Part shown: positions 9,501 to 61,787 of the stretch, piece after piece | How the letters are laid out: every line of letters starts with the position of its first letter | How positions within the stretch are numbered: the first letter of the stretch is position 1 | Source of the DNA: a virus | Reading direction: 5' to 3' (one strand) | IMG/VR virus record: IMGVR_UViG_3300007346_000025 | Location: 1-64,000 of that record | DNA length: 64,000 nucleotides | Translations under genes and position numbers: made by a program | Notes under the pieces: generated by a model | The model's database searches: none | What the model was told of the DNA's origin: nothing | Seen by the model: only the letters and a program-made list of their open reading frames with translations

Positions 9501-9955
9501 CTGTAAATACAAATAATAATAATATTCCAGATTATCTTGAATGGCAATCAACACCTCAACAAGAAGTTGATGTAACATATCAGCAAAAAAATAAACTTAA
9601 TTTTCAACCTAGAGGTTTAATGCCTTTCCTTGGTAATATTGCAAGGAATACTAGAAATGCATTAGATGCTAGTATGATAGATAAGTTTAATACTCAAAAT
9701 ATGATGTCTTCTAATGGTAGAGTAGCTCCAACAGAAATGCTTTCTCAAGGTAGATATGATATTAATACTGGTAGAGAAATTGATAAAGGTTTTGAAGGTA
9801 TAATTGGAGCTGGACTTACTCAACAAACTTACTCTAAATTTGGTGGACAATTAAACTATGAAGAAGGTGGGGAATATGACCTTACAGAAGAAGAAATCCA
9901 AGCACTCATTGATGCCGGTGTAGATATTACTTTATTAGAAGATTATGAAGATTAG
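6515..9955 (+). CDS. 1146-aa low-complexity (Q/M/G/P-rich) putative virion cargo protein with many xxxGG motifs
   Basis: Long ORF in the structural block; poly-Q tracts; about 10 GG motifs such as YAQGG, FTNGG, YDDGG, FSNGG, YPDGG, YEEGG. Confidence 0.6.
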   Translation: MNKKVRIYNPQYAQGGITQQDIQKYLMMQQQQQPQITESNLVDLIYNELTLLGDKGGYVDSGYIDDLAEKITAMYNLDNDYVMNLVTEVYSTIAPSELKYQKDVIKENSPNPELEMLDQENDEENLEENISTYDDYYGDDMEMKYGGVSRKKFIKKFIKKAQEGLEQESNTSIIGNNDIPDGRNALVKGFESSVKNSVVEAVAKNEFDKMKQQSSYFTNGGFYNPTSSGDEEAYAHHLNLMAQANKDIFNQPGMTTARDGREQRRANRDQRRVGRDVQRVLNNLPGMYPGGFNVYTMPGQIVPNMSQLSQGMPPFTIEGERNIFGGLKSYRATFEGGLPVNFMAGMMMPRTMGRGMNMLSSMYGYPSSFYNQRSYTYPGEIIYEEVNKEALKEVDKSTPNNSSTEVKESTIPSPSTTPVVPGIKKTKKTTVPQIIPQTTPPYKPEIDRAKFKDALEPDPGENYKEWRTEDGGVGVSYEAPYKTGMFGTTKPARYQIIYKPDGSIDKKKSFVAVVQSEDYGGVVYVPWDKQGTFWYDDGGIVMNTNTNPFGELQKYVYGGYDPSVAELDGTNLVDPSDPYTRQFSNGGTKEEYQKYIDWYNEDAPEEGMRRAAPQSYEEWMAENHPEIKPKQNIIPNYNPYNAALAAQYMNQAMNLNREMPMGTLARSINPFSINRRLVQKGLPMIAGTNIPFTGVFGPDTRISEIYTEPRRFGKDAIHYKFMIPGQEGPMLGMDWQQQVQQQQQQNQQQQEGVVDDYSTRTKKRGLEDESQIAIRQGEGDVRRSTRRAMRQDPDAFYEGEPLEGMVTPTSMEDYMAKINADNAFKVLEERLKEKNIKEKNVKPKSEYKSKRAALNAALKGESRKDVKNLGKDFIGYNQIHKNVEEQKRVFDEMRKDKTPEGLEKTLRYGTDILTPNMEKVLARGKSIEDYQANTSKKDKRKNFREFKKEARNRAEGGFVPDYMAYGGTPMYPDGGFVYNNPVDNRDNTVMGEDFFTVNTNNNNIPDYLEWQSTPQQEVDVTYQQKNKLNFQPRGLMPFLGNIARNTRNALDASMIDKFNTQNMMSSNGRVAPTEMLSQGRYDINTGREIDKGFEGIIGAGLTQQTYSKFGGQLNYEEGGEYDLTEEEIQALIDAGVDITLLEDYED

Positions 9956-21490: not shown

Positions 21491-24400
21491 ATGAAAATTA
21501 CATGTGCATTAAGCCAAAATCAAATTAAGAATCTATACAGTAATGTGTATGGTAACATGCTCAGCTCATTAAAAGAAGATACTCCTTTTGATGTTAATAC
21601 ATACATGGCAAGTGTATTTGATAAGATTAGCCAGAAGTCTAGTCCAGAAAATGCTGCTAAGTTTGTACAACAAATACCTAAAATGGTTTCTGTTGCTGCT
21701 AACCGTGAAGATTTATTTGACCTAGAAATTGACCTCAATGCAGTTAGAAAACTTGTAAAAGAGTTTGCTAATGAAGATACGGGAATTGAATCTGTAATGA
21801 AAAGATTTGCTCCTAAAAAATCTTCAAGTACTAAAAAAGAGTTAACAAATAAAAAAGCTAATGAAGCTTTTGATCCTACACAAACAGAGGATAAACCTGC
21901 AGAAACAAGACCATTATCATTAAAACCTTTCTCAATCTTTAATACAAGTTATCAAGAGTTTGAGGCAATTGATCCTAAAGCAAAAGAAGAAGGATACCAA
22001 GAAGTAGCAGATGAAACTAAAGAATTTATATATACTGCACTTGGTAAAATTGCTGCAGCAAATACTGATCTTGATAATGCTATGGATACCGCACAGTATC
22101 AAGGTAAAGAACTTAGACTTAAACCTATAGTTTTAGCTTCAGCTCCTGTTGAAATGCTTGATAAGTATTCTACAAGAATTAAAAATGTATCTACATTTTT
22201 TAGAAACTCTAATAAGAAAAACAATAGAGTAATTCAAGCCACTGAAATTATCTTAATGGCAATTTCAGATGAACAAGGTCAACTACTCTATTTTGATAAT
22301 GAAGGTAATATTGTAGATACTCCAGAACAAGGAAGAGTTGTTTATCAATTTTTAAGAAATGTAATTCAAGAGAATGGTAAATATGTAGATGTAAATATCT
22401 ATGGTTATTCTAATCAAATTGCATCACCTGAAGAAATATCTAAAGCTACTGGTGTACCAGTAGAAGAAGTTGCTAAAAATCAACAAGCTGACTTTAAAGC
22501 ATTGTATGATTATAAAAAATCTATCTTAGACGGTAATATAGCACTAGCACCATTAACAGGAATTAGTGAAGGAGTTTCTCCTAAACAATCTAAACAAATT
22601 ATAACATTAGCTAATATAAATCAATTTCCTTTTGGTAGTGATTCAATATTTAAATCTATTAAACCAGTTAAGACACCAAGAGGTATATTTAAAGATGGGG
22701 ATACTACAATTACAATTGAAGGTACTGAATATAAAATTGATAGACCAAATGCTACAGATGACATTATTAATAAAGTAGCTGATGTATTTAGTAATCCTAA
22801 TATATCTAATAAACAAAAATACAATTTCTATTTACAGTTTTTTTCAAAAAAAGCATCTCCATATACAAGAAGACATAATGTAGAATATGCTGAATCAACA
22901 GATGAATTAATTTTTACTTATTCTCCCACTACTTATGCTGAAAAATATTCTAAGTTTCAACCAATTGATAATTTAAATACTCCTGAAGCTAAAGAATTAA
23001 TTGTTGATATTTTAAAAAATGCTTCTGGTACAAAAGGAAAGTACTTTTCTGCTAAGATGAATTATGATGAGACTAATTTATCTAAAAATGGTTTTCTAGA
23101 TTATAACTTAGAAACAAGAACAGTAGATGAAGAATTTAGTAATTATATTGAATTACTAAAAACATTACCAAGAACTACTATATACTTTAGTGAATCTAGT
23201 GATCCTAAGAAGTTCAATGCATATATGAACTTTAGAATCCCAACTGAATTTATTAAAAATGTAGAAAAAGCTAAAGAAAATCCTGCTTTAGTAGAACCTT
23301 CTCCAACAAGAAAACAAAAAAATATTCTTGTTGATTATTTAAAAGGTCAACCTAAAATTACTCAGAATCTTAAATTAAATGTATCTGCTACCACTAAAAA
23401 GGGAATGGAAAATATATCTAATGAAGATTCTGAAATAAAAAATATAGATGAATCTAAATTTAAGAGACTAACTAATACTAATGAAAGTGAAAATGGATTT
23501 AGTGTTGAAGATGGTATTCTAAGAATTAGAGTTGGTGGATTAGATGTGTTTGGAAGAACTGGTGGTGCTACTCAAATAAGTTTAAAAGTACCTGAAGGAT
23601 TTAATCCAAATCTTTTTGCTGAAAAACTTAAGGACATAAGTCATGAAGGAGGAATTACAACACCAGAAGCTGTAAATCAAGTTATTACTGATATTAAAAA
23701 TGCTCTTAATCCAAATGTAACTACTGATATATCAAAGCAAGGTGTTGTAAATACTTCTGCTGCAGGCAATGAATTTGGAACTTTTAATATTACTTCTCCA
23801 GTAACAGGAGAATCACTTGTAGTTGCATTAGATAAAAAGTTTTTTAAAGAAGCTCCTTTATTAACTGTTGGTACACCTGTTTCATTAGCATTAACAACTT
23901 CTGAAACAGAAGATATGTATATCCCAGATATTATTGAAGTTAGAAATTCTGAAGGAAAAACTATTGGTCGTGTAATGGAAACAGACTATGGTAAAAAAGA
24001 AACTCCATTAGATAATTATTATAGAGAGCTTAAGAAACAAAGAAGTAAAACTATTGAGGAAAAAATTGAAGAAAGTACTAATACAAAAGGTACTGCTAAT
24101 CCAAAAGATGGTTTAGCTGGTAAGTTTTTCTTAAGAAGTGGACATTTGCAATATGATGCAACACCTGAGCAGGTTAAAAAAGCAGATAGTTGGTGGAATA
24201 CTAGTGATTTAAATAAGTATTTATCTTTTGAACAAGGAGTAGCAATTGTTAACTCAGATGCATTTGCAAGATTTATTGCTTATGGTTCTATTCTGAATGG
24301 TAAGTTAGGGATGATACAAATTGCAAATAAAGGTTCAATGGTAGATATATACCATGAAGCTTGGCATGGTTTCTCTCAGTTATTCTTAACACCTGAAGAA

Positions 24401-27400
24401 AAAACTCGTCTTTATAAAGAGGTACAAAGAAAGTTAGGTAGAAATAAAAAACTTTCATTTTTTGATATTGAAGAAATTTTAGCAGAAGACTTTAGAACTT
24501 ATGCTAAAAATCCAAAGGCTCTTGAAGATAGTCCTGAAAGAAATTCAATCTTTAGAAGAATATTAAATTTCTTAAAAGAGTTATTGGGTATAGGGTCAGT
24601 TACAAATGTAACAGATATTAAAAAAGTAAGAGAACTTTATAATAATCTTTACTTTAATGAAAATCTAAATCAATACACACCAAGTATTGATAATGTAATG
24701 TTTGATCTTCTCAATAGAAATTCTGGACTTCAAACATTAGCAGATGAAAATATTCAAGCTTTAAATAGACAAGATGCAACCACTGTAAAAAATTCAATGG
24801 ATAGTATCATATCTAAACTTACTGATAATTTATACTCAGAAAGAAAAGAAGATATAGAGCAATTGGGTCAGAACAAATCAGCAACAACTAAATTATTAGA
24901 AGATCCAAGAAATAGAAATGCATTGTATTCTTATATCTTTGATCAACTTGACACAAGAAGAATTGAATTACAAGATCAACTTGATAACCTTGAAGATGAT
25001 ACTAAAAACTTTTTAGAAAAACAAAAGTTAGAAAACAATATTAGAATTCTTACTGCTGCATTAGATAACTGGGGTAATCAATCTAATGGTATGATTAAAT
25101 ACCATATAGAAAACTCAGACTTTAATCTTCTAAGAGAAAAGTTTGTAGAAATGACACCTGAACAAGAAGATGCTGTAGAAGATGTTGAAGATACTGATAC
25201 TGAACCAACTGCTGCTGAAGATACTGAAAGAGTAGGTGATAAAAAAATTGGTGATAGATCTTTGCTTGAGTTAGCAGATAAGGAAGTAGTATATATTCTT
25301 AAGAGTCTATTTAAAAAAGATAGATCTGGTAAAGTAATCTTAAATGAACTTGGATTTGAAGAACTTGTAGATTTTAGAAGTACTTGGAATAATGTTGTTA
25401 GAACTATTGGTGGTGAACAAGATCCTATTGAACAATATAAATTATTAAAGGATGCTATCAAAATTCACCCGGAGTTTGAACAGTTGGTAAATTTTAAATT
25501 AGCAGATCCTAATCCAGACTCTGAAAATGCATCTAATAATTTATATGAAGCTAAAGCTACTACAGCATTTTGGCAAACATTTAGTAAACCAAGAGTACCA
25601 CTTTTACAAAGCACTATTTTTACAAATGGTATAACTCAAATTACAGAAGCTTCAATTGAAGCTGTAGATATATTAAGAGGTTTTGAAAATAAATTTAAAG
25701 CTGATATTAATAATGCATATATTATAAGAAGGAATGAAGATAATGTTCCTATGCTTGCACTCCAAGCATTAGTAGAAGATTTTTCAGATAAAAATGGTAA
25801 TCTTGATGATACTAAATACTATGAGTTTGCAAGAAGATTAGGTATATATCTTGATGATATTACTATAATTAAAAGAGCACTTACAAAGAATCAAAAAGCA
25901 GCAGAAGAATATGGTCTTCCTTACATTTTTAAAACAGTAAAAAAAGTTGCTGATTTAGAAGTAAATCCAAATGCCACTGAAAAGCAATTAAAATTTGTTG
26001 AAGATTTTAAGAAAAATCCTATTTTCTATTTAAGAACACAAATTCCTGCAGGAATAATATCTAATAAAGAAGAAACTCAGAAATATGCACTTAAAAAATT
26101 AGCAGAATTACAATCAAAATATGGATTAGATACTTCTAATTTTGGGGTACTTAATGCAGAAGGTAATACAGTATATGAACTTATTGAAAAGAGTACAGCA
26201 AGTAAAATTGCTTATGCTATAAATAAAGCTGAAAAACTTTCTGATCTATGGAATTCTAGTACTCTTAAATACATGAGTTATTTAAATCCAGCTATTAATA
26301 CATTTACAAATAACTCTAGATTTCTTAAAACAATCTTTGACTTTAATGATCCTGAGTTTACTAAAAGATCTGATAAAGAATTAGAATTATTTCTTTCTTC
26401 TGGTACTCAACAAATTGTTAATGAGGAATTCGGAATAAAAGATGGAAATAACACAACTTCATTAGATACAACTAGTAAGTTTCTTCAAGAAATGAACTCT
26501 ATGCTTAAAGCTGGTGTACAAGAATTCATTCGTCATGCATCTAAAAGTTCTGCATTTGGATTAAGAGTTAGCGGTGATATTATTGGTAGACCTGGTAAAC
26601 TAGATAGTGATCCTAGACTTTGGATTGATATAGATATGTTTGCTGATAATACTGCTGACTCATATGCATTAAAGACACATATTGTACCTTATATTGCAAC
26701 TGAAGCCAATAGAATTTATAAGTTTAAACAAAATAGAACTGAATTTGAAAAATATCAAGGATATAATAATGAAACTCCTAGTGGTAAAATGGCTGGAGAA
26801 GTATTTACTGCATTTGATAATGTATTAAGACCTTCAACTAAACAAGCAATATATTCAGCAATTGATAATGCAATACTTAATAAAGAATACTTTGATTTTA
26901 TTTCTTTTATTAAAACTGATCAAACAGGATTAGCTGATAAAATTAGAACTGATGTATTAGATTATTTTAATGAACTAACTGAAGAAAACTATAATATACT
27001 TCAGGAGACCAATTATATTAGTCCTGATATAATCAATAGACTTAAAAAATTTAATTTATCAAAAGAAGAACAAGATAAATTACTTACTAGAGCTTATACA
27101 TTTAACTCTTGGATACATAATTTTGAAACTATCAATCTTATGTATGGAGATATGGCACAGTATAATCATATTAAAGAAGAGTTACATAAAAGAAATACTG
27201 GTTTAACTTCAACAGGTAGATCTTTTAGAACAGACATAGCTGCTCAGAATTTAGTTAAAGGAGCACTTAGAAAAAATTCTTATGCTGAGAAAAAAGGATT
27301 TAACTATGTAGAATATGATGGTACACTTAATACAGCTATCATTCAAGATATAGAAAGATCATCTGTTTACTTACCAGTTATTGAAAAAGCTTTAATTGAA

Positions 27401-30400
27401 GATTATACAAATAAGCTTAAAGAAACAATAAAGGATCCTGCTAAACTTACTGAAGCTGTAGAATATAGAGTTAAGAAGGACTTAGATGCCTACAAGAAAA
27501 TGGTAGAAGGTGATGGTCAAGGGTGGGTTACTTTTGATACTTATAGAATTCTTAAGAATCTAGAGAATGCTTGGTCATATGAGCAAGAAGAATTATTTAC
27601 TAAAATAACTGATGGAGAATTTGTCTCTCCTACAGAAATTATTCAAATGTTCCCAGTATATAAAATACAAAACTTTGGCCACTTAGCTAATACAGGATTG
27701 CCTGTAAATGCTATGCATAAGTTTGCACTTGCTCCATTAATACCATCTATGATTGAAGGATCAGATCTTCAGTCTTTACATGAACAAATGATGGCAAATA
27801 ACATTCAGTATGTTACATTTCAGTCTGGTTCAAAAGTTGGTTCTGTTACTTCAGAAAAAGATTCTAAAGGTAAAGCAGCAGCAGACATCATTTATAAAGA
27901 TGATGAAATGAAAAATCTCAATAGAGATATTAATTTTACTCCAAACACTATTTACGTAGATTATCTTAAAAATGTTACAAATGTAAATAGCTCATATAAA
28001 GAAAAAGCAACATTCTCCACACAGTTAAGAAAATTAATCTTGGGGTCAATGTATCGTGAAGGTAAAATCATTAATCCCAATAATGAAGCAACTGTAAAAG
28101 AATATGAAAAAACTGTTGATGAGTACACTAAACTTTTAAAATTTGAGTTACTTAATGAAATTGGGTATGAAGAAGTAGACGGTAAGTATATTGGTAATCT
28201 TACAAACTTTTTAGATTTAGTTCAAAGAGAGTTAGGTAGAAGAAAATTACCAGAACACCATATTGAATTTGTTGGTCAAAATCTAGATAGCACATTAAAG
28301 ACTGATTTATCATTACACTTAAGAGCTGATGATATAGAAAAAATTCTAGTTAGTCTTATTGAAAAAAGATTTATTAAACAAAAAGTAAAAGGTGAAGCTT
28401 TAGTACAAGTATCCAGTGCTATGACAAATGGAATCTGGTCCACACCAACATTTAAAAAAGCAACAGCTGAAGAAATTAGAAAGTATATTGGCACTAATAA
28501 CTTACCTTTCTATAATCCAAGTAAAGATGGTACTTCAGCAATGAAAGTAGCAATTGCTTTACAGGGAGACTTTATAAAATTATTGAGAAGAAAAGATGTT
28601 GCAGTAATTGACACTGTTGATGGAAAAAGAACTCTTAATAAAAAAGCTAGTCTTGCTAAGTTAAATCAACTTATAAAAGATGAAGCATGGTTAGAAAATA
28701 ATAGAGATTTAATTAGAATGTCTGCTGTACGTATTCCAGTACAGGGTCTTAACTCTATGGAGTTCATGGAAGTCTATGAATTCTTAGATCCTGCAGCAAG
28801 TAATATTATTATTACACCAACAGAAATTGTTGCTAAATCAGGATCTGACTTTGACGTTGATAAACTCATCACTTTTATGCCTAATATAGATAATAGAGGT
28901 ATGTTTATTAAATCTGGTATGTCTGAAGAACAATTCCAAGATTTTGTAAAAAGAAATAAAAACAATAAAGATAGAGTAAAAGAAACAATTAAAACTCAAA
29001 AATCTGCTCTTGAAAATAAACTTATTACAACTATTAATAATATTCTTGCATTACCAGATAACTATGCAAATCTTGTAAGGCCTAACTCTACATATCTACT
29101 TAAAGATATTGCAGATAAACTTCAAGATTTTGTATCTGAGTATGATAGATTTAAAAATAAACTTGGTCAGGAATATGTAACAATAACTGATAAAGAAGAT
29201 AAAAAAGTAAAAGTTATTAGTCCTACAAGAACACTTGAAACTGGATACAATCTTCATAAACATGATGTAAACTTAACTGGTAAGAAAGTATTAGGTATTA
29301 CAGCTATTGAGAATTCATTAAATCCTATTCTTAATTCTTTGGGTGCAGCAATGCCAAAAACATATAAGCATTCTTATTATGATAATGCTATAAAGAAATG
29401 GGTAGAAACTGATACAACTTATAATACCAACTTGTATTTGCCACATAGAAAAATGGCAGATGGTAGAATTTCTCTTTCACATACTGAAAGCTTAGATGGA
29501 GATTCAATTTCTGATGTTCTATCACAAATGATGAATGGTCTAGTTGACGTAGAAAAAGATGCATGGATATTCTTTATACAGGCTAATTTAGAAATTGCTC
29601 CTACTTTATTGTATTTAATTAAAGCAGGTGTACCAAAAGAACATGCAATCATGTTTGTTTCTAATCCCCTTGTTAGAGATTATGCTAAAAATAAAAGGCT
29701 TTACAATAGTGCTTATTCTGAATTATCAGGTAGAAAACTTGATGATAAATCTTATGCTCAATACCAAGCTGCTACAGATGTAATCATTAGTCAACTTCCA
29801 ACACTTATTGAAGATCAGTTATCTAATATTAGAGATACTGAAACTATATATGTAAGAACAGGACGTTTTAATCCATACTTACAAGAAATGGAGTATGAAG
29901 ATATTCCAATGACTAAGTTGCAACTAATTCAAAAAGTAAAAGACAAAAATTTTGCTGAGTCATTTATTAATGTGCGTAAGGATAGTAAGAAAGGTGGGAT
30001 TATATTTAATAAACCATCTATAAGTAATAAAAAGTATTACTTAGACACTAAGTTCTATACTCAAGCATATATAAATAAAAATAAAGAGTTTGACTTAGAT
30101 CTTATGAAAAGAGTTATTCTTGATCCAAAGTCTTCAAAATATAGAGGAGCAGCAATGGCTATGTTTATGCACTTTATAGAAATTGAAAAACAAATCCGTG
30201 GTCTCCAAACATTAAAAAGACTTGCTAATCCAGATACTAGAACTTCTAAAACATTAGAAGAAGTAATTAGAAGAGGTGTATCACTTGAAGAACTTAAAGA
30301 ACTTTCTAAAGTAGATCCTGAGTTAGTAAGAAAATTAGTTGAAGAATCAATTCTTGGAAGCTTCTTTGATAATAAACTCATTGGAGAATTAGTAAAACCA

Positions 30401-32581
30401 TTGTTTCCACTAAGAAATAATGATAAGGTTACTAATTATGTAATTGCATTGCTTCAAACAAAAGCAGGATCTCTAGTTAAAAAATATGGTACTGGTCCTG
30501 AAGCAACAAGAGCATTTATTTCAGAATATAAAAACTCTATTGTAAACTATGTCTTCCAAAACTATATGTCAAACTTTATTGACGGTAAAGGAAACATAGT
30601 AAATGTTCCTACAGAGTATAAAGAAATGCCTGTAAAAATTAAAAAAGGAATTAAGAATGGAGCTCAAGTAGTTGATAATGTTGTCTATATAGATGAAGCT
30701 AGAATTTCTAAAGACTATGCTGAAAAATTATTTGCAGCAGAATCTGAAGCAGAAAATAGCTATAGAGCCCGTGGTCTTAGACCATTTAGAGCAGCAGAAA
30801 ATGTTTTTCCAACTGAATCTAGCTTCTTTAAATATGTAGTAGAAAGAGAGTATCAAAGATCTATGATACCTTTAGAAAAAGCATTGGAAAATAAAACATT
30901 TAAATATCTTAGAAATGTACTTAAATCATCTATTAAAGATGTTAAAACATTAAATGAACAAACTTATGAGGCATTTTTAAATCAAAGAGCTATGATCTTT
31001 GCATTTAATAGAGAAGCTCTTATGAAAACTATTAACTATTCTTATTCAGATCAGTTAATGGCATTAATTAGAGAATTCTCACAACTCAAAGATAAGTACC
31101 CAATATTAAATCAACTTACTAAACCTGCACTTAAAACAGGTGAAAAAGTAATCTCATTAAATGACTCCAGAATGTTAAAAGATCCACAGCTTGCTGAGAT
31201 CTATTATCAGAACATTAAAGATCTTGGGGATCCTACAGTTAAAAAAGTAGCTTTAGAATCAGACAATGAAAGAATAAGTGAGATGTTTGGTATACTTCCA
31301 TTAGTAGCTGTCTACCAACACGGTATTGGTTATAGCAGATTTGGATTTAATGAAGCACTTCCTTATGATAAATTCTTAGAAGTAATGGATTCTGCATCAA
31401 AGATATTCTTAGAAAAACAACTTAATAATGCTACTCTAGGAAATATCTATTTAAAGCTAATGGATCCTAAGAATAAATTATTTAAAGACTTTGTGGTTTC
31501 TCCAAAAGACTTTAATAATCCTACAGAAGAAACATTAGAACCTGAAGTTACAAATGAAGAGGTTGATGTTGAAGAAGAGGTTATTACTACACCATCAACT
31601 CAATTAGATTCTGAAAATACAATTAATATCTATGCAGGTACAGGAGAGAATGCTGAGTTAAGTAATTTTGCTGTAAGACCTTTTTCTCCAGTTATTGATG
31701 GAGTAGAATTAGGCCAATTTAACACTGTTGAGGGAGCATTTCAAGCAATGAAAATACTTAACTACTCAAGTGATAGACAAGTACAGACTGATAAATATAA
31801 AGCATTAAAAACAGCTACTGGTGCAAATGCTAAAGCTATAGGTCAAAAGGTTACTGGTTTAGACAAAAAATCTTGGGATAAAAATTCTTCTAGAATTATG
31901 AAAGAATTATTATTACAATCATTCCAACAAAATCCAGACGTTCTTGCTAAACTTCTTGCTACAGGTAATGCTACTCTCACTCATGTAGGTACTGAAAAAC
32001 CTAATAGATGGACTACAGAGTTTCCTAGATTACTAATGGAAGTAAGAGAAGAACTAGGTGGTACTCAACCTACAGAAATAAATCAAAAAATAAAAGATAT
32101 TATTGATAAAAGTAATTTAGAAAAAGATGAATATGAAGTAGTATTAGTTAATGGTGTTCAAACTTTTGTTGATTTAAGATTAATGCCAGAAAGCATTAAA
32201 AAAGGATATGGTGTATACTATTCTTTACAGAAAGATGGTTTACTTAAAAGAGCGGGTAAAAAAATAATAGTTCCTGGATATGAAGATATACAACTAATAT
32301 ATGATCAACTTGATGGTTCAATAATAGAATTAAGCACAGGATTGTTAATTCCAACACAAGAAAAAACACAAAGTAAAGTTATAAATGAATTACAGGATAT
32401 GTTTGAATTTAGAAATATTAGACTCGTATTAGAAAAATCTGATAAAATAACTGCTAATGAACCTAATACTGTTATCTCAAGTTTGGAAGGTCTATCTACT
32501 CAACCTACTCAAGAAGAATCTAAGAAAAATGCACCGGAAGGTCTACCTCCAATTGACAGATCTATAGACTCTTGTAGTTAA
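21491..32581 (+). CDS. Virion-packaged DNA-dependent RNA polymerase (crAss-like, phi14:2 gp66-like) with zincin and NADAR domains
   Basis: Catalytic GSDFDVDK at 28841-28864, preceded by RIPVQGLNSM; GDGQGW motif; HEAWH at 24353-24367 with downstream EEILAE; NADAR-like region about 31620-32060. Confidence 0.88.
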   Translation: MKITCALSQNQIKNLYSNVYGNMLSSLKEDTPFDVNTYMASVFDKISQKSSPENAAKFVQQIPKMVSVAANREDLFDLEIDLNAVRKLVKEFANEDTGIESVMKRFAPKKSSSTKKELTNKKANEAFDPTQTEDKPAETRPLSLKPFSIFNTSYQEFEAIDPKAKEEGYQEVADETKEFIYTALGKIAAANTDLDNAMDTAQYQGKELRLKPIVLASAPVEMLDKYSTRIKNVSTFFRNSNKKNNRVIQATEIILMAISDEQGQLLYFDNEGNIVDTPEQGRVVYQFLRNVIQENGKYVDVNIYGYSNQIASPEEISKATGVPVEEVAKNQQADFKALYDYKKSILDGNIALAPLTGISEGVSPKQSKQIITLANINQFPFGSDSIFKSIKPVKTPRGIFKDGDTTITIEGTEYKIDRPNATDDIINKVADVFSNPNISNKQKYNFYLQFFSKKASPYTRRHNVEYAESTDELIFTYSPTTYAEKYSKFQPIDNLNTPEAKELIVDILKNASGTKGKYFSAKMNYDETNLSKNGFLDYNLETRTVDEEFSNYIELLKTLPRTTIYFSESSDPKKFNAYMNFRIPTEFIKNVEKAKENPALVEPSPTRKQKNILVDYLKGQPKITQNLKLNVSATTKKGMENISNEDSEIKNIDESKFKRLTNTNESENGFSVEDGILRIRVGGLDVFGRTGGATQISLKVPEGFNPNLFAEKLKDISHEGGITTPEAVNQVITDIKNALNPNVTTDISKQGVVNTSAAGNEFGTFNITSPVTGESLVVALDKKFFKEAPLLTVGTPVSLALTTSETEDMYIPDIIEVRNSEGKTIGRVMETDYGKKETPLDNYYRELKKQRSKTIEEKIEESTNTKGTANPKDGLAGKFFLRSGHLQYDATPEQVKKADSWWNTSDLNKYLSFEQGVAIVNSDAFARFIAYGSILNGKLGMIQIANKGSMVDIYHEAWHGFSQLFLTPEEKTRLYKEVQRKLGRNKKLSFFDIEEILAEDFRTYAKNPKALEDSPERNSIFRRILNFLKELLGIGSVTNVTDIKKVRELYNNLYFNENLNQYTPSIDNVMFDLLNRNSGLQTLADENIQALNRQDATTVKNSMDSIISKLTDNLYSERKEDIEQLGQNKSATTKLLEDPRNRNALYSYIFDQLDTRRIELQDQLDNLEDDTKNFLEKQKLENNIRILTAALDNWGNQSNGMIKYHIENSDFNLLREKFVEMTPEQEDAVEDVEDTDTEPTAAEDTERVGDKKIGDRSLLELADKEVVYILKSLFKKDRSGKVILNELGFEELVDFRSTWNNVVRTIGGEQDPIEQYKLLKDAIKIHPEFEQLVNFKLADPNPDSENASNNLYEAKATTAFWQTFSKPRVPLLQSTIFTNGITQITEASIEAVDILRGFENKFKADINNAYIIRRNEDNVPMLALQALVEDFSDKNGNLDDTKYYEFARRLGIYLDDITIIKRALTKNQKAAEEYGLPYIFKTVKKVADLEVNPNATEKQLKFVEDFKKNPIFYLRTQIPAGIISNKEETQKYALKKLAELQSKYGLDTSNFGVLNAEGNTVYELIEKSTASKIAYAINKAEKLSDLWNSSTLKYMSYLNPAINTFTNNSRFLKTIFDFNDPEFTKRSDKELELFLSSGTQQIVNEEFGIKDGNNTTSLDTTSKFLQEMNSMLKAGVQEFIRHASKSSAFGLRVSGDIIGRPGKLDSDPRLWIDIDMFADNTADSYALKTHIVPYIATEANRIYKFKQNRTEFEKYQGYNNETPSGKMAGEVFTAFDNVLRPSTKQAIYSAIDNAILNKEYFDFISFIKTDQTGLADKIRTDVLDYFNELTEENYNILQETNYISPDIINRLKKFNLSKEEQDKLLTRAYTFNSWIHNFETINLMYGDMAQYNHIKEELHKRNTGLTSTGRSFRTDIAAQNLVKGALRKNSYAEKKGFNYVEYDGTLNTAIIQDIERSSVYLPVIEKALIEDYTNKLKETIKDPAKLTEAVEYRVKKDLDAYKKMVEGDGQGWVTFDTYRILKNLENAWSYEQEELFTKITDGEFVSPTEIIQMFPVYKIQNFGHLANTGLPVNAMHKFALAPLIPSMIEGSDLQSLHEQMMANNIQYVTFQSGSKVGSVTSEKDSKGKAAADIIYKDDEMKNLNRDINFTPNTIYVDYLKNVTNVNSSYKEKATFSTQLRKLILGSMYREGKIINPNNEATVKEYEKTVDEYTKLLKFELLNEIGYEEVDGKYIGNLTNFLDLVQRELGRRKLPEHHIEFVGQNLDSTLKTDLSLHLRADDIEKILVSLIEKRFIKQKVKGEALVQVSSAMTNGIWSTPTFKKATAEEIRKYIGTNNLPFYNPSKDGTSAMKVAIALQGDFIKLLRRKDVAVIDTVDGKRTLNKKASLAKLNQLIKDEAWLENNRDLIRMSAVRIPVQGLNSMEFMEVYEFLDPAASNIIITPTEIVAKSGSDFDVDKLITFMPNIDNRGMFIKSGMSEEQFQDFVKRNKNNKDRVKETIKTQKSALENKLITTINNILALPDNYANLVRPNSTYLLKDIADKLQDFVSEYDRFKNKLGQEYVTITDKEDKKVKVISPTRTLETGYNLHKHDVNLTGKKVLGITAIENSLNPILNSLGAAMPKTYKHSYYDNAIKKWVETDTTYNTNLYLPHRKMADGRISLSHTESLDGDSISDVLSQMMNGLVDVEKDAWIFFIQANLEIAPTLLYLIKAGVPKEHAIMFVSNPLVRDYAKNKRLYNSAYSELSGRKLDDKSYAQYQAATDVIISQLPTLIEDQLSNIRDTETIYVRTGRFNPYLQEMEYEDIPMTKLQLIQKVKDKNFAESFINVRKDSKKGGIIFNKPSISNKKYYLDTKFYTQAYINKNKEFDLDLMKRVILDPKSSKYRGAAMAMFMHFIEIEKQIRGLQTLKRLANPDTRTSKTLEEVIRRGVSLEELKELSKVDPELVRKLVEESILGSFFDNKLIGELVKPLFPLRNNDKVTNYVIALLQTKAGSLVKKYGTGPEATRAFISEYKNSIVNYVFQNYMSNFIDGKGNIVNVPTEYKEMPVKIKKGIKNGAQVVDNVVYIDEARISKDYAEKLFAAESEAENSYRARGLRPFRAAENVFPTESSFFKYVVEREYQRSMIPLEKALENKTFKYLRNVLKSSIKDVKTLNEQTYEAFLNQRAMIFAFNREALMKTINYSYSDQLMALIREFSQLKDKYPILNQLTKPALKTGEKVISLNDSRMLKDPQLAEIYYQNIKDLGDPTVKKVALESDNERISEMFGILPLVAVYQHGIGYSRFGFNEALPYDKFLEVMDSASKIFLEKQLNNATLGNIYLKLMDPKNKLFKDFVVSPKDFNNPTEETLEPEVTNEEVDVEEEVITTPSTQLDSENTINIYAGTGENAELSNFAVRPFSPVIDGVELGQFNTVEGAFQAMKILNYSSDRQVQTDKYKALKTATGANAKAIGQKVTGLDKKSWDKNSSRIMKELLLQSFQQNPDVLAKLLATGNATLTHVGTEKPNRWTTEFPRLLMEVREELGGTQPTEINQKIKDIIDKSNLEKDEYEVVLVNGVQTFVDLRLMPESIKKGYGVYYSLQKDGLLKRAGKKIIVPGYEDIQLIYDQLDGSIIELSTGLLIPTQEKTQSKVINELQDMFEFRNIRLVLEKSDKITANEPNTVISSLEGLSTQPTQEESKKNAPEGLPPIDRSIDSCS

Positions 32582-32600
32582 AAATTCGTATATTTATATA
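32582..32600 (+). promoter_or_regulatory. TTCGTATATTTA promoter-like motif
   Basis: Same GTATATT core (G at 32588) as upstream of 6515, 12294, 56080 and 56775. Confidence 0.55.
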
Positions 32601-32611
32601 AATAAGAAACA

Positions 32612-35600
32612 ATGCCTTGTAAGACTCAAATAAAAAACAAACTAACCGATCAAGTATATGATCTCGCACAACCTGGTTTAGGTATGTCTCAAGCTAATGC
32701 TAATGCACTTGCTGCTGATATAAATAGAAGTTTTGGTACACAGGTGGTTAGATTTAATAGTTATGTTACAGATGATCTTCTTGAAATGGATATTAATATC
32801 CCGCAAAGTTTAATAGATGTTTACTATGATAATGAACTTATATTAGAAGCAAAAGAACTAGAACAAAGCATTGAAGATGCAAGAAGAGCTCAACAAGAAG
32901 ATGCTGCTCGTTCAGGTGTAGAATATACAGATCAGTATTTATTTGATAATTCTTCTGCGGTAGAGGTAGCACTCTCCAGAGAAGGTATTGAAAGAAGGAG
33001 AGATATACAAATAGCAGAAGCACTTGGTGAGAAATATAGTAAAGCATTTAATATTCCTTATCAAATTATTACTGAGGGTCAAGCTATAGAAATTTTATCT
33101 GAAAGCCCAACACCATATAAAGGTAATATGTCTTCTTTTTTCTATGGGGACATAGTATACTTTGTTGAAGGTAAGTTTAAAGCCGGTAATGTAGTGCATG
33201 AGTATGCACACCCTTTAGTAAAAGGTATTCAGTTTCAGAACCCAAAGTTATTTGATAACTTATTTAATCAACTTAGTTTAAGTGAAACCGGAAAAAGAGC
33301 TTTACAGATTGTAAAAGAAAGATATCCTGAACTTGGAACAGACACGGTAAGATTTAAAGAAGAAGCCATTGTTACTGGAATAGAATTAGATTCTAATAAA
33401 AAACTGGATGAGACTATCAAAGATGATAATTTATTCCAAAGATTCATTACTAATGTAATGGCAGCTATTAAAAAAGTTTTAAGGGCTTTATCCACTAAAG
33501 TAAATCTTAAATCTTTGGATTCTACCACTACTAGAGATGAATTAGTTGATATGCTATTAGATGAAGACTTTGTAATTGAAGATTTAGAATATCAATTGTC
33601 TTTACTTCCAGAGTTTAAAAAAGAAGCTGAAAGTTTTCTAAATGATCTAGAAAAAGCTAAGAGTAAGGAACTTCTAACTGTAATTGATAGATACTATGAT
33701 AATGTTAACTTTCAACTTAATAAATTACGTAAGTCTCCTGATCAAGTAAAAAGTTTATTAGAAGGAAAAGTTGGAGAAGATATTTTAAAAAATATTGAAT
33801 CTTTTCTATCCCCATATATTGTAAGAAGTAAAAACTTAACAGCTGAGGAAGTTGAAGAAATTATCAATGCTATTGAAGAGAGTGAAGAAGATACTAGACT
33901 TAGAGCAATTGCATTTGTAAACAGTTTAGCTGAATCACAAGTTTATGCTGAAAGAATTAATAATGCCTTAGAAAAATTAGTTAGTACAAAAAGACACCTA
34001 ACACCAGAAGGAATTACCCAGGTAATTTACTATAAAGATATGTTGTCTGGACAATTTGCATTTTTTGAAGAAGCTGTAAAACAGTTAAATATTCCAAGAG
34101 ATAGTTCTATTATTCAAAAAATTCTTTCTGTAAAACAAGTTATCAAAGATGATCTAGAAGAAATAAATGAGATAATGTTTGATTTTTCTAAAGATTTAAT
34201 GAATGATGCTACTAAAAATATGCAGGAAAATTTAAATGCAGAATTTAAAGATAGGATAACTCAAATACTTAAAGCAGACGGTTTTAAAGAGGCTGATATA
34301 AATAAATTTTTAAACTCTGTTATTGATCTGATTGATATAAATAATAAAAAAGATTTTAAGGAAAGTGAACTTAATGCTTTACTTCCAAAAGCTTCTCCAA
34401 GAATAAGGTATATATTGAGAGCTGTAAAAAAATATGTAACAAAACATATTACACCAGATGTTATTCAAGATTTTCTTACAGGATATACACAAGATATTGG
34501 TCAAATTGGTTCTAGTTTGGTTCCACTTGGTAATATTGATGATGTATTAGGTGCTGTATTTAACTTTATGAAAGATAGAGCTGCAGATACAGATGTAGAA
34601 TCTCAACGTCAGTTAAATCAAATGGCTGATAGTTTATATCCATTCTTAGAAAAAGTAGGTTGGAATCCAAATAAAACTACTCAGCTTGGTGACCTTTTAT
34701 TATTTAAGGATACTGTTAAATTAGAAAGAAATGGTGAGTTAGTTGAAAAAGAAGTATACTCTTTTATTGATAAGTTTAAAAACTATAGAGCTGATAAAAC
34801 CCAATTAGAGTATGATCTTAAAAGAGCTAGAGAATTAAAGGATCAAGAACTTATTGATAGAGCAACTGAAGCTTTATGGGATTTTCATGAAAAATATATG
34901 CATAGAACTTTTACTCCTGAAGTGTATAAAGTTTTAAATATGTTTAAACAAGAAAATACTGTTATACATCCAGAAACAGGTGAAGTTTTAACGGTATCTA
35001 AAGAACTTTCTATGGAAGCATACCGAGAAAGAAAGAAAGCTTTAGAAACTTTAAATACTCAGAATAAAAGAGACTTTACAGAACTTGATGATTTGTTTGA
35101 TTACAATGAAGCTAGTGTAGCTAAAATACAGTATGAAGAACTATATAGTGTTATTGAACCAACAACCGGTGAATACAAACAAGGTGATGAATTAAAAAAA
35201 GTATTACTTAGAATTAAGTATAGAAATGATTCTAGAAAATTCTATGACTTTGATGTAAACTATGATAGAGTTCAAAGAGATCTAGATAATTTTATTAATG
35301 TAAGACTTGCAGCTAGAGGTATTACTCTTGATGCTACACCAGAAAGATTTCAAGCAGAGTTAGATAGATATCTACGTAAAAATTTTAGAGTTGCATACAC
35401 TGAAGAATATTATAAAGAATTAACAGCAATTTTTAATGAAATAGCTAGAATTAATGCTAAAGCTTCTGAATCAGATGTATCTAAAAAACTTGCTAGTTTA
35501 TATGATCAAAGAAAAACATATGTAAATATGGTTACTGATAAAGATGGAGAACCTAATGCTCTTAATCTTGACAGAGTTCAAATTGATCAAGTTAAACTTA

Positions 35601-38485
35601 TAGAAGATGAAATTGTTTCATTACAAAGTCAATTTGATAAAGCTTCTGGATTAACTAAAGAAGAAGCTGCTAGGTTACAGTTTTATGAAGTAAGATATAT
35701 TTCTAAAGGTAAAACTAATGAGTTATCTGATGAACAAAAATTAGAGTACTATAATCTTTCTAACAAATCAAATAAGTTTGGTTTATCTTCACAAGAAATG
35801 ACCAATTTAAGAAACTTATATAGACGTTTATCTGAACTTACTGATTTAATCCCTACTGATTATTATTTTGAAGCTTTTAACACAGCTGTAAATGGTGTTG
35901 ATATAGAGGAAATAAATTTTGAAAATGCTGATCAATGGATTAATTCTGATAATGTAGTATTAGCAAAAGCAGAAAGTGAAAGATTTGCAGAATGGTTTGA
36001 TAGAAATCATTATCAAAAAATGGTATATAATCCAGAAATAAATAGATATGAGAAAAAATATTTTAGAATTAAAGTATGGAGTGTATCAAGACCAACTGAC
36101 CCAAGATATTACAAAAAAACAGAAGTAATTAATCCTGCAACAAAAGAAAAAATAGAAGTATCTGGTGTTCCAGTTTCTAGATACACTATATCTAAAATTA
36201 AAGATAAATATAGAACAGGATATAATCCACAAACTAAAAAAGTTGAACTTAAAGTTGGAGTTCATATTAACAATAAAGGACAGTTTTTACCAAGAGAGTA
36301 CAATCCTAGTTTAGAAAATTCAGCATATGATAATAAGTATATGAATGAAAAGTATTATAAATTAAATACTAATAGTTCTACTTATAAATTACTTCAAAAA
36401 GTTAAAGAAGAATTTCTAAAAATTCAAGAAGGATCAGGAGAATATGAAAAATTATATTTAGATCTTCCAAGATTTAGAAAAAGAACTAATCTTGAAAGAA
36501 TTCAATCTGGTGATATACAAAGAAAGGGGGCTGCTTTTAAAGGAACATTGAAAGATGTTAAAGCCTCATTTAAAGCAGCAGAGGATGATCAAGACAAAGG
36601 TTTTAATGCTAATATTGATCCTTCATTTGTTCCTACGGATATGGATGGAAATCCAATATCAAGAATCCCAGTTCGTGGTCTATTTGCATTAGATGTTACT
36701 GAAACTTCTACAGATGTGTTAAGAGCACTTGGAGAATATATGTATTCAATAAATAAAACTAATGCACTTAAAAAAGATGAACCATTGTATTTAGCACTAA
36801 GAAATGTTTTATCTGATCCTAAAAATGCTGCTAAAAATATTAATCAAGCAAGTTCTACTCTTAGAAACTCTGGGTTAGGTGTAATGAGACTTCTACCTAA
36901 AAGTGAAAACCGTAAACTTAGACTTTTTAATGAAATACTTGAAAGAGAACTTTATGGTCAAGTAACTGATGATTTTCAACAAAATTTTAAATGGTTTGCA
37001 AAAGCTAGTGGAAAAATAATGGGTTTAGCAAGTTTATCTTTTTATGCTTTAGATGTTCAATCTGCAATGAAAAACAGATTTGGTATGACTGTGCAGAAAA
37101 TGATTCTTGCAGCTGGAGGCAGATTTATTAATACTAAATCATTAGCTACTGGTAAAATAAAAGCAGTTAAAGCTATGACAGAACTTACAACTTCTGGAGT
37201 ATATGAAAGAGGAGCTAAAAGTTTAAATATGCAAATGATGGATGCATTTGATTTAATACCTGGTAGAGCTCAATCTGATTTTGCACAATCTCTTACAAGA
37301 ACTATCTTATCAGATGCTAGTAATGCAACATTTTTATATGATTTTAGAAGATGGGTTGCAAATGAAGCATCATTAGAAGTTGGATATGCAGTACTGGATT
37401 ACCAAATGATAGAACAAAAAATGCCTAATGGTAAGTCTAGAATGATTCCATATTCAGAAGCTTTTGAAATAGGACCTGATAAATTATTAAAACTTAAAGA
37501 TGGCATTAATCCTGAATATGGTATGACTCAAATTAAACATACTTATGTTGATGGAGAAACCTATGAAGATTTGGCTAAGATGTATAACACAACTGTAGAA
37601 AATCTTAAGGATTACAATAAAGTAGAAAACTTATCTGAGTTAGACCCTGGTACAGAAATAATAATTTCCAATGCTAAAGAATTTAAAAATATACGTAGAA
37701 GATTAGCTGGTATAAATAAAAAACTCAATGGATATATTATAAGTATTGATAATCCGTCATTAAGTAGAAACTTACTATATAAACTATTTACTTATTCACG
37801 TAACTATGCTACGGGAATGTTTTTACAAAGATTTCAATTTGATACAGATAAAGATAATTTCTTTGGAGAAGTATATGACTGGGATTTAGATACTACATCT
37901 AGAGGTTTTTATATTACAGGAACTATTGCAATTATTAATTTAATTAGAGACTTTCAAAAATATAAAGGAATAATGACTGCTGATGAAGTAGCAGCTGTTA
38001 AACAAATGATATTTGAATTTGCATATTTATTCTTACTTGCTGCTGCTATTTATTTTGTATTTGGGTATGATCCTGGTGATGAAGATAGATGGGAAAAATT
38101 AAAAGGAAGAGAAGAAGAATACGGTAAGGCTGGTTGGATGGCTAATCAAATTCTTTATCAATTAATTATGGTAAAAAGAGAAAATGAAACATTTATTCCT
38201 ATACCAGGAGTAGGTTATGATGAATGGACTGAATATGTATCTACATCAACTATTGCTCTAGGACCTACACTTGAAGTTTATGAAGATCTTGCAGTAGATT
38301 TGTATCGTCTCTTAACAAACAGTGAAAAAGCATACTATAAACAAGATGTTGGTCCATATAAATGGCAAGAAAAAGGTTCTGCAAAAATATGGAATGATAT
38401 AGGTAGAGTATTTGGTATTAAAGGTAAAAATGTTTCACCAGTATGGGCAATTAAAAAAGCTGAAATGGCTGAAAATCTTAAATAA
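32612..38485 (+). CDS. 1957-aa ejection protein with N-terminal zincin, LysM domain and C-terminal hydrophobic helix
   Basis: HEYAH at 33197-33211 plus EEAIV; LysM-like HTYVDGETYEDLAKMYNTTVENLKDYN...LDPGTEIII about 37538-37666; FAYLFLLAAAIYFVFG about 38018-38066. Confidence 0.7.
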   Translation: MPCKTQIKNKLTDQVYDLAQPGLGMSQANANALAADINRSFGTQVVRFNSYVTDDLLEMDINIPQSLIDVYYDNELILEAKELEQSIEDARRAQQEDAARSGVEYTDQYLFDNSSAVEVALSREGIERRRDIQIAEALGEKYSKAFNIPYQIITEGQAIEILSESPTPYKGNMSSFFYGDIVYFVEGKFKAGNVVHEYAHPLVKGIQFQNPKLFDNLFNQLSLSETGKRALQIVKERYPELGTDTVRFKEEAIVTGIELDSNKKLDETIKDDNLFQRFITNVMAAIKKVLRALSTKVNLKSLDSTTTRDELVDMLLDEDFVIEDLEYQLSLLPEFKKEAESFLNDLEKAKSKELLTVIDRYYDNVNFQLNKLRKSPDQVKSLLEGKVGEDILKNIESFLSPYIVRSKNLTAEEVEEIINAIEESEEDTRLRAIAFVNSLAESQVYAERINNALEKLVSTKRHLTPEGITQVIYYKDMLSGQFAFFEEAVKQLNIPRDSSIIQKILSVKQVIKDDLEEINEIMFDFSKDLMNDATKNMQENLNAEFKDRITQILKADGFKEADINKFLNSVIDLIDINNKKDFKESELNALLPKASPRIRYILRAVKKYVTKHITPDVIQDFLTGYTQDIGQIGSSLVPLGNIDDVLGAVFNFMKDRAADTDVESQRQLNQMADSLYPFLEKVGWNPNKTTQLGDLLLFKDTVKLERNGELVEKEVYSFIDKFKNYRADKTQLEYDLKRARELKDQELIDRATEALWDFHEKYMHRTFTPEVYKVLNMFKQENTVIHPETGEVLTVSKELSMEAYRERKKALETLNTQNKRDFTELDDLFDYNEASVAKIQYEELYSVIEPTTGEYKQGDELKKVLLRIKYRNDSRKFYDFDVNYDRVQRDLDNFINVRLAARGITLDATPERFQAELDRYLRKNFRVAYTEEYYKELTAIFNEIARINAKASESDVSKKLASLYDQRKTYVNMVTDKDGEPNALNLDRVQIDQVKLIEDEIVSLQSQFDKASGLTKEEAARLQFYEVRYISKGKTNELSDEQKLEYYNLSNKSNKFGLSSQEMTNLRNLYRRLSELTDLIPTDYYFEAFNTAVNGVDIEEINFENADQWINSDNVVLAKAESERFAEWFDRNHYQKMVYNPEINRYEKKYFRIKVWSVSRPTDPRYYKKTEVINPATKEKIEVSGVPVSRYTISKIKDKYRTGYNPQTKKVELKVGVHINNKGQFLPREYNPSLENSAYDNKYMNEKYYKLNTNSSTYKLLQKVKEEFLKIQEGSGEYEKLYLDLPRFRKRTNLERIQSGDIQRKGAAFKGTLKDVKASFKAAEDDQDKGFNANIDPSFVPTDMDGNPISRIPVRGLFALDVTETSTDVLRALGEYMYSINKTNALKKDEPLYLALRNVLSDPKNAAKNINQASSTLRNSGLGVMRLLPKSENRKLRLFNEILERELYGQVTDDFQQNFKWFAKASGKIMGLASLSFYALDVQSAMKNRFGMTVQKMILAAGGRFINTKSLATGKIKAVKAMTELTTSGVYERGAKSLNMQMMDAFDLIPGRAQSDFAQSLTRTILSDASNATFLYDFRRWVANEASLEVGYAVLDYQMIEQKMPNGKSRMIPYSEAFEIGPDKLLKLKDGINPEYGMTQIKHTYVDGETYEDLAKMYNTTVENLKDYNKVENLSELDPGTEIIISNAKEFKNIRRRLAGINKKLNGYIISIDNPSLSRNLLYKLFTYSRNYATGMFLQRFQFDTDKDNFFGEVYDWDLDTTSRGFYITGTIAIINLIRDFQKYKGIMTADEVAAVKQMIFEFAYLFLLAAAIYFVFGYDPGDEDRWEKLKGREEEYGKAGWMANQILYQLIMVKRENETFIPIPGVGYDEWTEYVSTSTIALGPTLEVYEDLAVDLYRLLTNSEKAYYKQDVGPYKWQEKGSAKIWNDIGRVFGIKGKNVSPVWAIKKAEMAENLK

Positions 38486-61511: not shown

Positions 61512-61787
61512 TTAAATTAAATCTAGATCAGCTTCTAATACTTCTGGTTCTTCTTCTTGTAGTTCATAAACTCTTAGGTCTAATGGAATGAACCTATCTG
61601 CATCATAGTACTCATAGGGAAAACAATCAGCAGACATTTGTACTTCTTTAAGAAGTACTCCATGTTTACCATTCTGTAATCCCATTTGTACTATTTTAAT
61701 AATAGTATATACTTCACCTTCTTTTATCCACTGTTCTACAGGGACTTTAGCAGGTTTATTAGTACTATCAATGCATATCACCCTCAT
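61512..61787 (-). CDS. Hypothetical protein (91 aa, SH3-like beta pattern)
   Basis: MRVICID...IKEGEVYTI...YDADRF. Confidence 0.6.
   Translation of the reverse strand: MRVICIDSTNKPAKVPVEQWIKEGEVYTIIKIVQMGLQNGKHGVLLKEVQMSADCFPYEYYDADRFIPLDLRVYELQEEEPEVLEADLDLI

Follow-up and report, generated by a model that had tools for sequence, protein, structure and literature searches.

An exchangeable C-terminal cassette carrying a NADAR domain on a predicted crAss-type virion RNA polymerase: a candidate injected counter-defence module

Why should the RNA polymerase of a crAss-type phage carry a NADAR domain near its C-terminus, and against what might such a domain be directed? The question is raised by the IMG/VR virus record IMGVR_UViG_3300007346_000025, a linear record of 72,792 bases of which a stretch of 64,000 was analysed (hereafter the window). 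The window has a guanine plus cytosine content of about 30%; giant genes follow one another along its + strand, and its - strand carries a replication block. Among the giant genes is a single open reading frame (ORF) of 3696 residues, in which a NADAR domain follows a polymerase core (Table 1). The reading that we favour, at a probability of roughly 0.55, is that the domain is an injected counter-defence module that removes ribosyl adducts from nucleic acids and is swappable on the virion polymerase, its activity, packaging and substrate all being predicted.

The identity of the domain was examined by profile, sequence and structure comparison. A first-pass annotation of the same DNA had placed a NADAR domain at 31620-32060, in agreement with the bounds given here, and the peptides on which it relied are all in frame in the giant ORF (ELSNFAV, 31655-31675; NTVEGAFQAMK, 31721-31753; LLMEVREEL, 32030-32056). 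The Pfam profile PF08719 matched residues 3387-3498 of the whole protein with 49.5 bits (E 7.2e-13; curated cut-off 35.1), so that the profile check proposed in that annotation has now been run; the same profile gave 53.9 bits (E 3.3e-14) on a piece of 360 residues and 54.6 bits at 31646-31984 in a six-frame search of the genome, and PHROGs 1017 and 652 also matched the domain. By phmmer it was related to E. coli YbiA (2b3w, E 5.7e-5) and to a Phytophthora NADAR (8bau, E 1.4e-3). Modelling of residues 3370-3530 with AlphaFold2, on a 36-sequence alignment, gave a predicted local distance difference test score (pLDDT) of 91.1 and a predicted template modelling score of 0.87, and the terminal helix, the loss of which inactivates RB69 AdfN, was present in the model. 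When this model was searched against the PDB with Foldseek, the three NADAR structures in it, and no others, were found at probability 1.00, namely 2b3w (E 5.4e-7, template modelling score (TM) 0.70), 8bau (E 5.6e-6, TM 0.66) and 8bat (E 1.2e-2, TM 0.53), and the next match stood at E 0.75. These three entries are YbiA, PnNADAR and a Geobacter DarG1-type NADAR, respectively. On this model the domain is a genuine NADAR with a YbiA-like alpha+beta fold and not a chance match.

The fusion of this domain to a virion RNA polymerase, as first annotated, holds, in that both lie in one polypeptide. A slice of the ORF (residues 1901-2900) aligned with gp66 of Cellulophaga phage phi14:2 (PDB 6vr4) in three collinear HMMER stretches with an E value of 3.4e-20, and in this alignment the SGSDFDVDK of the giant ORF stands opposite the catalytic TGSDFDIDK of gp66; that DFDID is the catalytic motif of gp66 was described in bioRxiv 10.1101/2020.03.07.982082. 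With residues 2001-3000 as query, tblastn returned 18 phage records: uncultured crAss-type phages (13), phi14:2, crAss002 and Dulem virus 41. Nothing in the phage collection was matched by megablast with 28000-33000, and the ORF therefore has no close annotated relative there. By homology and by its DFDxD motif, the ORF of 3696 residues is a crAss-type virion RNA polymerase. Its N-terminal extension contains a zincin-like HEAWH motif in a region that no Pfam family matched, which may be a putative autoprocessing peptidase. Polymerase core, HEAWH motif, NADAR and a further domain of no assigned fold thus occur in one polypeptide, which on its sequence can be classed as a polyvalent protein, the peptidase being only putative. 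A separate observation on the same N-terminal part is a second variable stretch at about 23390-23716 (residues ~634-742), which comprises ~60-120 residues here and in the homologue P0002 and is unaligned in homologues P0003 and P0183-P0187.

What surrounds the NADAR domain becomes clear when the closest polymerase homologues are compared. Body identity to them is 74-88% up to about residue 3375, and the BLASTP alignments of the body to P0003 and P0183-P0187 stop at query residues 3367-3383. Similarity then returns over the last 18-28 residues (...APEGLPPIDRSIDSCS) in P0003, P0183, P0184, P0185 and P0187, the tail match of P0186 being weaker (37.7% over 77 residues). Between body and tail, P0184 and P0185 have almost nothing; P0186 has an ART-PolyVal domain; P0187 has an AlkB-like 2-oxoglutarate-Fe(II) oxygenase, under its Pfam cut-off; P0003 has an AlkB-like domain and a NADAR; P0183 has ~300 residues with no assigned domain; and the protein of this window, like P0002, has the NADAR followed by a domain of ~140 residues of no assigned fold. 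Only the intervening stretch varies among these close relatives, while body and tail are kept, and the NADAR is therefore one option in an exchangeable cassette between a conserved polymerase body and a cysteine-tipped tail. Past the last body alignment, the homologues have between 16 and 1153 further residues. Precomputed Pfam matches for the 120 nearest homologues of the polymerase core list NADAR in 23, PF13532 (AlkB-like) in 16, ART-PolyVal in 7 and three further families once each, 76 of the 120 being without any. As to the second domain of the cassette, a search of the giant proteins found it, at 87-100% query coverage, only in P0002, P0004 and P0013; it had no Pfam or PHROG match and no relative in viral_contigs, its best Atlas score (0.77) was under the useful range, and its single-sequence AlphaFold model was unusable (pLDDT 46.6).

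The first-pass annotation treated the fusion as singular; it proved instead to be one option of a widespread cassette. When residues 3340-3696 were searched against giant proteins (2032-6468 residues), 2984 of 6176 candidate clusters matched at E <= 0.001. In the best 120 matching giant proteins the motif D[FY]D.D was found in 117; the NADAR follows the motif in 107 and precedes it in 10, the median separation being 1004 residues. Proteins of 88-282 residues yielded no more than 61 matches, 43 of them on contigs of <= 3 kb, and the short matches on such contigs are mostly fragments. The annotated crAss-type genomes contain the domain too: in cr126_1 it is in a 'DUF1768 domain-containing protein' of 2402 residues beside a polymerase subunit, in cr131_1 in a protein of 1401 residues and in cr130_1 in one of 5801 residues. 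The DUF1768 label is already attached to such proteins in database annotation. As an observation in its own right, the NADAR stretch of cr131_1 (NC_055902.1, L002:8001-8477) has an in-frame stop under translation table 11 within the annotated coding sequence of 1401 residues, which suggests stop-codon recoding.

Is the domain then equipped for catalysis? In PnNADAR, Glu43 and Lys50 correspond to Glu88 and Lys95 of E. coli C7 DarG1, residues needed for activity according to the text of PMC11543638, and the counter-defence function of T4 AdfN (gp30.3) is reported to be abolished by E36A and K43A (PMC11257639). The third catalytic position is described as Glu in YbiA types, Asp in DarG1 and His in phage NADARs (PMC11543638, PMC11125620). 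Conservation was read from two alignments, one of 36 sequences and one in which 138 giant proteins contributed 107 distinct NADAR domains; the NADAR regions of cr131_1, with the stop just mentioned, and of cr130_1 were left out of the comparison. The Glu and Lys columns are occupied as in AdfN and DarG1, and Trp3462 and the LSNF motif are likewise invariant in all 107 domains. At the third position the 'LTH' containing His3498 is aligned opposite 'LKH' of T4 gp30.3. Thus, of the comparison with DarG1 and T4 gp30.3 suggested by the first annotation, the Glu and Lys common to both and the His of T4 are present, but not the Asp of DarG1. The GxxGxNxLG loop is absent from the crAss clade and from AdfN, and is present in T5-like, YbiA-type and DS-32-type proteins. 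PADLOC gave a sole match, to the candidate-system NADAR model PDC-M42C (36.4 bits), and none to a DarG model. From these residues and profiles, the domain is placed in the NADAR superfamily as a phage protein of the His type, and not as a DarG1, a YbiA or a DS-32B equivalog; membership of DarG1 was rejected on the third catalytic residue. It is predicted to be a catalytically competent N-glycohydrolase.

A second line of evidence concerns delivery with the virion. The polymerase ORF has two cysteines only, at residues 5 and 3695, and the sole cysteines of the giant proteins on either side of it are their last residue upstream and residue 3 downstream. In these three consecutive giant proteins, cysteines are accordingly found solely at the termini that face each other, against 0.9% Cys in the replication genes. 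The pattern is general: among 121 polymerase homologues, a cysteine occurs in the last six residues of 119 and in the first ten of 107, and 117 have no internal one; in the NADAR domains none was found (0/107). Because the cassette follows the cysteine-free rule and is itself followed by the conserved tail, the simplest view is that it belongs to the packaged chain. Packaging of phi14:2 gp66 in the virion and its translocation are reported in bioRxiv 10.1101/2020.03.07.982082, and for crAss001, mass spectrometry detected the polymerase-associated proteins in virions, where they are modelled as cargo to be ejected (PMC10172136). We infer packaging and injection of the present polymerase from gp66, from the crAss001 cargo and from the cysteine-free signature. 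Apart from this, the 12 cysteines of a protein of 762 residues at 9945-12233 are all grouped as paired CxC/CC clusters within residues 432-495, in a gene block that is otherwise poor in cysteine.

Table 1. Features of the giant polymerase ORF, its NADAR cassette and the flanking giant genes (window coordinates).
Feature	Position	Strand	Evidence or remark
Upstream giant protein, 2011 aa	15452..21487	+	sole Cys is the last residue
Giant ORF, 3696 aa, crAss-type virion RNA polymerase (by homology) with accessory modules	21491..32581	+	single open frame; 6vr4 match
Zincin-like HEAWH motif in the N-terminal extension, residues 955-959	24353..24367	+	identical in 117/118 aligned homologues
RNA polymerase catalytic core, residues 1976-2741	27416..29713	+	aligned with phi14:2 gp66 residues 945-1681
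DFDVD metal-binding motif, residues 2453-2457	28847..28861	+	aligns with gp66 DFDID 1361-1365
Acidic linker, about residues 3344-3375, end of similarity to cassette-less relatives	31520..31615	+	BLASTP, sequence
NADAR domain, residues 3376-3525, phage type with His at the third catalytic position	31616..32065	+	Pfam, phmmer, fold model, alignments
Catalytic Glu3414 (AdfN E36, PnNADAR E43)	31730..31732	+	invariant, 36/36 and 107/107; aligned with T4 gp30.3
Catalytic Lys3421 (AdfN K43, PnNADAR K50)	31751..31753	+	invariant, 36/36 and 107/107
His3498, column of PnNADAR Glu125 / DarG1 Asp171	31982..31984	+	34/36 and 107/107; T4 gp30.3 also His
Second cassette domain, residues 3526-3668, no assigned fold	32066..32494	+	shared with P0002, P0004, P0013
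Conserved C-terminal tail ending ...APEGLPPIDRSIDSCS, with Cys3695	32495..32578	+	68-89% identical whatever the cassette
Downstream giant protein, 1957 aa, LysM near the C-terminus	32612..38485	+	sole Cys is residue 3

From these elements the following sequence of events may be proposed. The polymerase, bearing the NADAR module in its C-terminal slot, would be synthesised late in infection and packed as cargo; it would reach the next cell together with the DNA or before it, and refold there. The NADAR would then remove ribosyl-type base adducts from the template or from the first transcripts before phage gene expression, having arrived ready-made and attached to the enzyme by which the genome is first read. 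Removal of guanine adducts from RNA is reported for NADARs, among them that of T4 (PMC11833690), and cytosine adducts are substrates for some (PMC12945103). A bolder form of the proposal, which we put forward only tentatively, is that the C-terminus, between the conserved body and a tail serving for docking, is a hot-swappable slot for loading enzymes that reverse base adducts (NADAR, AlkB-like and others), so that lesion removal would be coupled to transcription; the NADAR would then be directed at guanine or cytosine ribosylation of the DS-32 type or of another origin, and not at DarT1.

Several findings weigh against the favoured reading and are collected here. The record is incomplete (estimated completeness 61%), and packaging of the cassette in this phage is deduced only from homology. 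The HEAWH motif may mean that the polyprotein is cleaved, in which case the module is possibly untethered, or active in the producing cell. In the domain itself, two secondary positions of ADP-ribose contact are atypical, with Gln3452 in place of Arg (71/107) or Lys (21/107) and Lys3503 in place of Asp (103/107). The gp30.3/AdfN profile PF08010 stayed below its cut-off (29.5 and 33.6 bits against 36), several members of the clade having a precomputed match to it. Two equivalogs were tried and rejected, YbiA (TIGR02464) at 51.8 bits against 73.7 and with His for Glu, and DS-32B (NF053876) at 26 bits against 240 and with giant cargo genes as neighbours. The basic N-terminal extension of DarG1, the proposed groove for single-stranded DNA, is missing, there being ~14 residues from the acidic linker to LSNF, and the match to 8bat has a TM of 0.41 when normalised to the target. 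To the same side belong one study in which the T4 NADAR is reported not to rescue DarT1 toxicity (PMC11125620) and the want of NADAR genes next to DarT in Bacteroidota, described below.

Against which host system would such a module act? According to the first-pass annotation, it would strip the ADP-ribose placed by DarT1 on guanines of the incoming genome, in the manner of a classical anti-DarT1 factor. AdfN and two other phage NADARs do so, and the text of PMC11257639 has all tested phage NADARs reversing guanine ADP-ribosylation and countering DarTG1; moreover, the domain shares with AdfN the Glu, the Lys, the His and the loss of the GxxGxNxLG loop. The hosts of Crassvirales are Bacteroidota (PMC10136315), and the survey took in 401 genomes drawn from the phylum to which a Bacteroidota metagenome-assembled genome (MAG; L010) belongs. 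A related-locus search with the single domain also led to two Bacteroidota MAG contigs, which resemble crAss-type fragments and are not evidence for a host. DarT (PF14487) was found at 39 places in 34 of the 401 genomes; 32 places were examined, the other seven being fragments or in frames with stops. The neighbour was a macrodomain protein in 30 of them (DarTG2 type, thymidine-specific), an ADP-ribosylglycohydrolase (ARH) in one and unassigned in one. No DarT locus had a NADAR next to it (0/32; the sensitivity of PF14487 to DarT1 is unproven, 0/14 control genomes being matched, so that DarT1 may be missed), and conversely none of the 32 NADAR places examined, in a set of 34 of the 401 genomes with NADAR, adjoined a DarT (0/32). 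Reversal of thymidine ADP-ribosylation and rescue of DarTG2 are reported as negative for the published NADARs in PMC11125620 and PMC11257639. In the window, no DarT or other ADP-ribosyltransferase (ART) family was found among the 43 ORFs scanned. The choice of DarT1 as target thus lacks support; DS-32, or a transferase acting on guanine or cytosine, is at least as plausible, and we regard the anti-DarT1 explanation as doubtful. From the original anti-DarT proposal, the NADAR, the polymerase fusion and the catalytic residues are retained; DarT1 as target is not supported in the form proposed. Candidates for the system countered are a guanine ADP-ribosyltransferase resembling DarT1 or pierisin, and a system of the DS-32 type. 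A side observation from this survey is that at L032, L033 and L034 the DarT domains stand at the C-terminal end of proteins of 720 and 1135 residues; in this set one DarT has an ARH as its partner and a UvrD-type helicase before it, with no macrodomain DarG.

The DS-32 system leads to a further explanation, namely that the injected NADAR mimics the antitoxin: it would replace DS-32B and cancel any N-glycosidic product of DS-32A, which is like a phosphoribosyltransferase (PRTase). DS-32 (PRTase plus NADAR) is described in bioRxiv 10.1101/2025.01.08.631726 as an experimentally validated anti-phage pair, and swapping of toxin and antitoxin partners is proposed there. In the Bacteroidota sample, PRTase-CE adjoins 5 of the 10 lower-scoring NADARs, that is in 5/401 genomes (L063, L064, L066, L067 and L071, in G171, G073, G323, G354 and G037), while the same sample gave no DarT-NADAR pair. 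When four of the five pairs were compared with NCBIfam, all four PRTases passed the DS-32A model NF053875 (262-344 bits against 250) and two of the four NADARs passed that of DS-32B, the other two reaching 235-238 bits against 240. However, the phage domain scores only 26 bits where this model demands 240 and has His where the DS-32B type has Glu, and DS-32 is rare (about 1% of the sample) whereas NADAR cassettes are very common. We therefore hold the mimic to be rather unlikely. One of the DS-32-type pairs, it may be added, adjoins an AAA_15/AAA_21 ATPase gene.

A different possibility is that the NADAR degrades small molecules, either immune signals derived from ADP-ribose or by-products of nicotinamide adenine dinucleotide (NAD), and not adducts of nucleic acids. 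In the account of Iyer et al. (PMC9503650), most phage Macro and NADAR domains target soluble ADP-ribose derivatives and are maybe packaged in virions. Relatives of the present protein join NADAR and a SLOG-type cpYpsA (PF12694) in one polypeptide; Bacteroidota NADARs of the YbiA type adjoin NrtR, ARH, Macro and KptA, and the 22 high-scoring NADARs of the sample stood mostly in settings of NAD/ADP-ribose metabolism, where PRPP-synthetase-like genes were found besides these four. Nevertheless, base-linked ADP-ribose has been the substrate of every NADAR assayed so far, sister cassettes hold an AlkB-like dioxygenase, an enzyme of the nucleic-acid base-repair type, and an enzyme tethered to a polymerase is more in keeping with a nucleic-acid substrate. 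A soluble substrate thus seems quite improbable. Still less probable is that the NADAR serves as partner or immunity module for an injected ADP-ribosyltransferase of the phage itself, limiting or reversing self-modification: ART-PolyVal does occur in the same cassette of relatives, and together with NADAR in P0012 and P0295, but among the 120 nearest homologues only 2 of 23 NADAR-bearing proteins have PF18760, and the 43 ORFs scanned in the window (of an incomplete record) include no ART. Finally, a degenerate or purely structural domain devoid of enzymatic role, to which the two clade-atypical substitutions Gln3452 and Lys3503 might point, is hardly credible, for the catalytic triad, Trp3462 and LSNF are invariant in the 107 domains and the fold model is confident.

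The injected, nucleic-acid-directed module, to which we now return, would have several implications. Phage NADARs have so far been known as free early proteins made after entry. A NADAR pre-loaded on an injected polymerase would, if true, act before phage expression, a distinct strategy of timing against defences that modify nucleic acids. The module is one of several enzymes that replace one another at this position in thousands of crAss-like phages, which dominate among the phages of the gut, and the content of the cassette may report on the base-modifying defences used by Bacteroidota. The presence of DarTG2 and DS-32 in the sample, in which DarTG1 was not found, points to uncharacterised targets. 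Natural polymerase variants that differ mainly in the cassette offer a set for direct tests. Phage NADAR counter-defence, virion polymerases, polyvalent proteins and the predicted packaging of ADP-ribose-processing domains (PMC9503650) were already known. In the literature, the text search, outside of which figures and some supplements fell, found no account of a NADAR or of an exchangeable cassette on a crAss-type polymerase, and neither NADAR nor YbiA nor any word in ADP-ribos* occurs in the main text of Yutin 2021 or in that of the zeta-crAss paper.

Three further observations concern other genes of the window. The first ~90 residues of a protein of 1824 residues (1004-6478) match a SET domain, of the lysine methyltransferase type (PF00856, 34.1 bits against 22.4). 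In the replication block are a spore-photoproduct-lyase-like protein (PF20903, 83 bits; 58870-59739) and a ClpS-like adaptor (PF02617, 51 bits; 61768-62022).

How, then, does the cassette compare with known systems? AdfN (T4 gp30.3) is alike in its NADAR fold, in the Glu and Lys columns, in the His at the third position, in the lack of the GxxGxNxLG loop and in being encoded by a phage. Identity between the two is 25%, with PF08010 below its cut-off, and AdfN is a free early protein of 152 residues, made after entry, whereas the present domain is embedded near the C-terminus of a virion polymerase. AdfN counters DarTG1, of which none was found in the sample of Bacteroidota, the presumed host phylum. 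The nearest characterised group is that of the T5-like (Markadamsvirinae) NADARs, with 36% identity to a protein of phage slur09; NADAR-Bas32 of this group, which need not be identical with the slur09 protein, is reported to neutralise DarT1 (PMC11257639). These T5-like proteins differ in that the Glu ('LIE') and the long loop are kept and that they are encoded by stand-alone genes. DarG1 (PMC11543638; 8bat) has the superfamily, the core fold, the Glu and the Lys in common with the domain, and it alone has Asp at the third position, the basic N-terminal extension and an adjacent DarT1. With DS-32 the domain shares the superfamily, and DS-32 is present in the presumed host phylum; here, in contrast, no PRTase stands beside the NADAR.

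On the side of the carrier, the comparison is with phi14:2 gp66 and with gp47, gp49 and gp50 of crAss001, cargo proteins associated with its polymerase; a homologous catalytic core with DFDxD and the block of giant-protein genes are shared. Compared with the 2180 residues of gp66, the present ORF has ~1090 extra before the motif and ~420 past the end of gp66, the latter including the NADAR cassette. The polyvalent proteins (PMC5512222, PMC9503650) likewise combine numerous effector domains in a single polypeptide delivered by the virion, in many cases together with a peptidase of the zincin type, and have ART-PolyVal in common with the sister cassettes; the main texts of both papers contain no 'crAss', and that of PMC5512222 contains neither NADAR nor AlkB. 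Unlike the polyvalent proteins described there, the carrier is here predicted to be an RNA polymerase, and the slot that holds the exchangeable domains is bracketed by a conserved tail.

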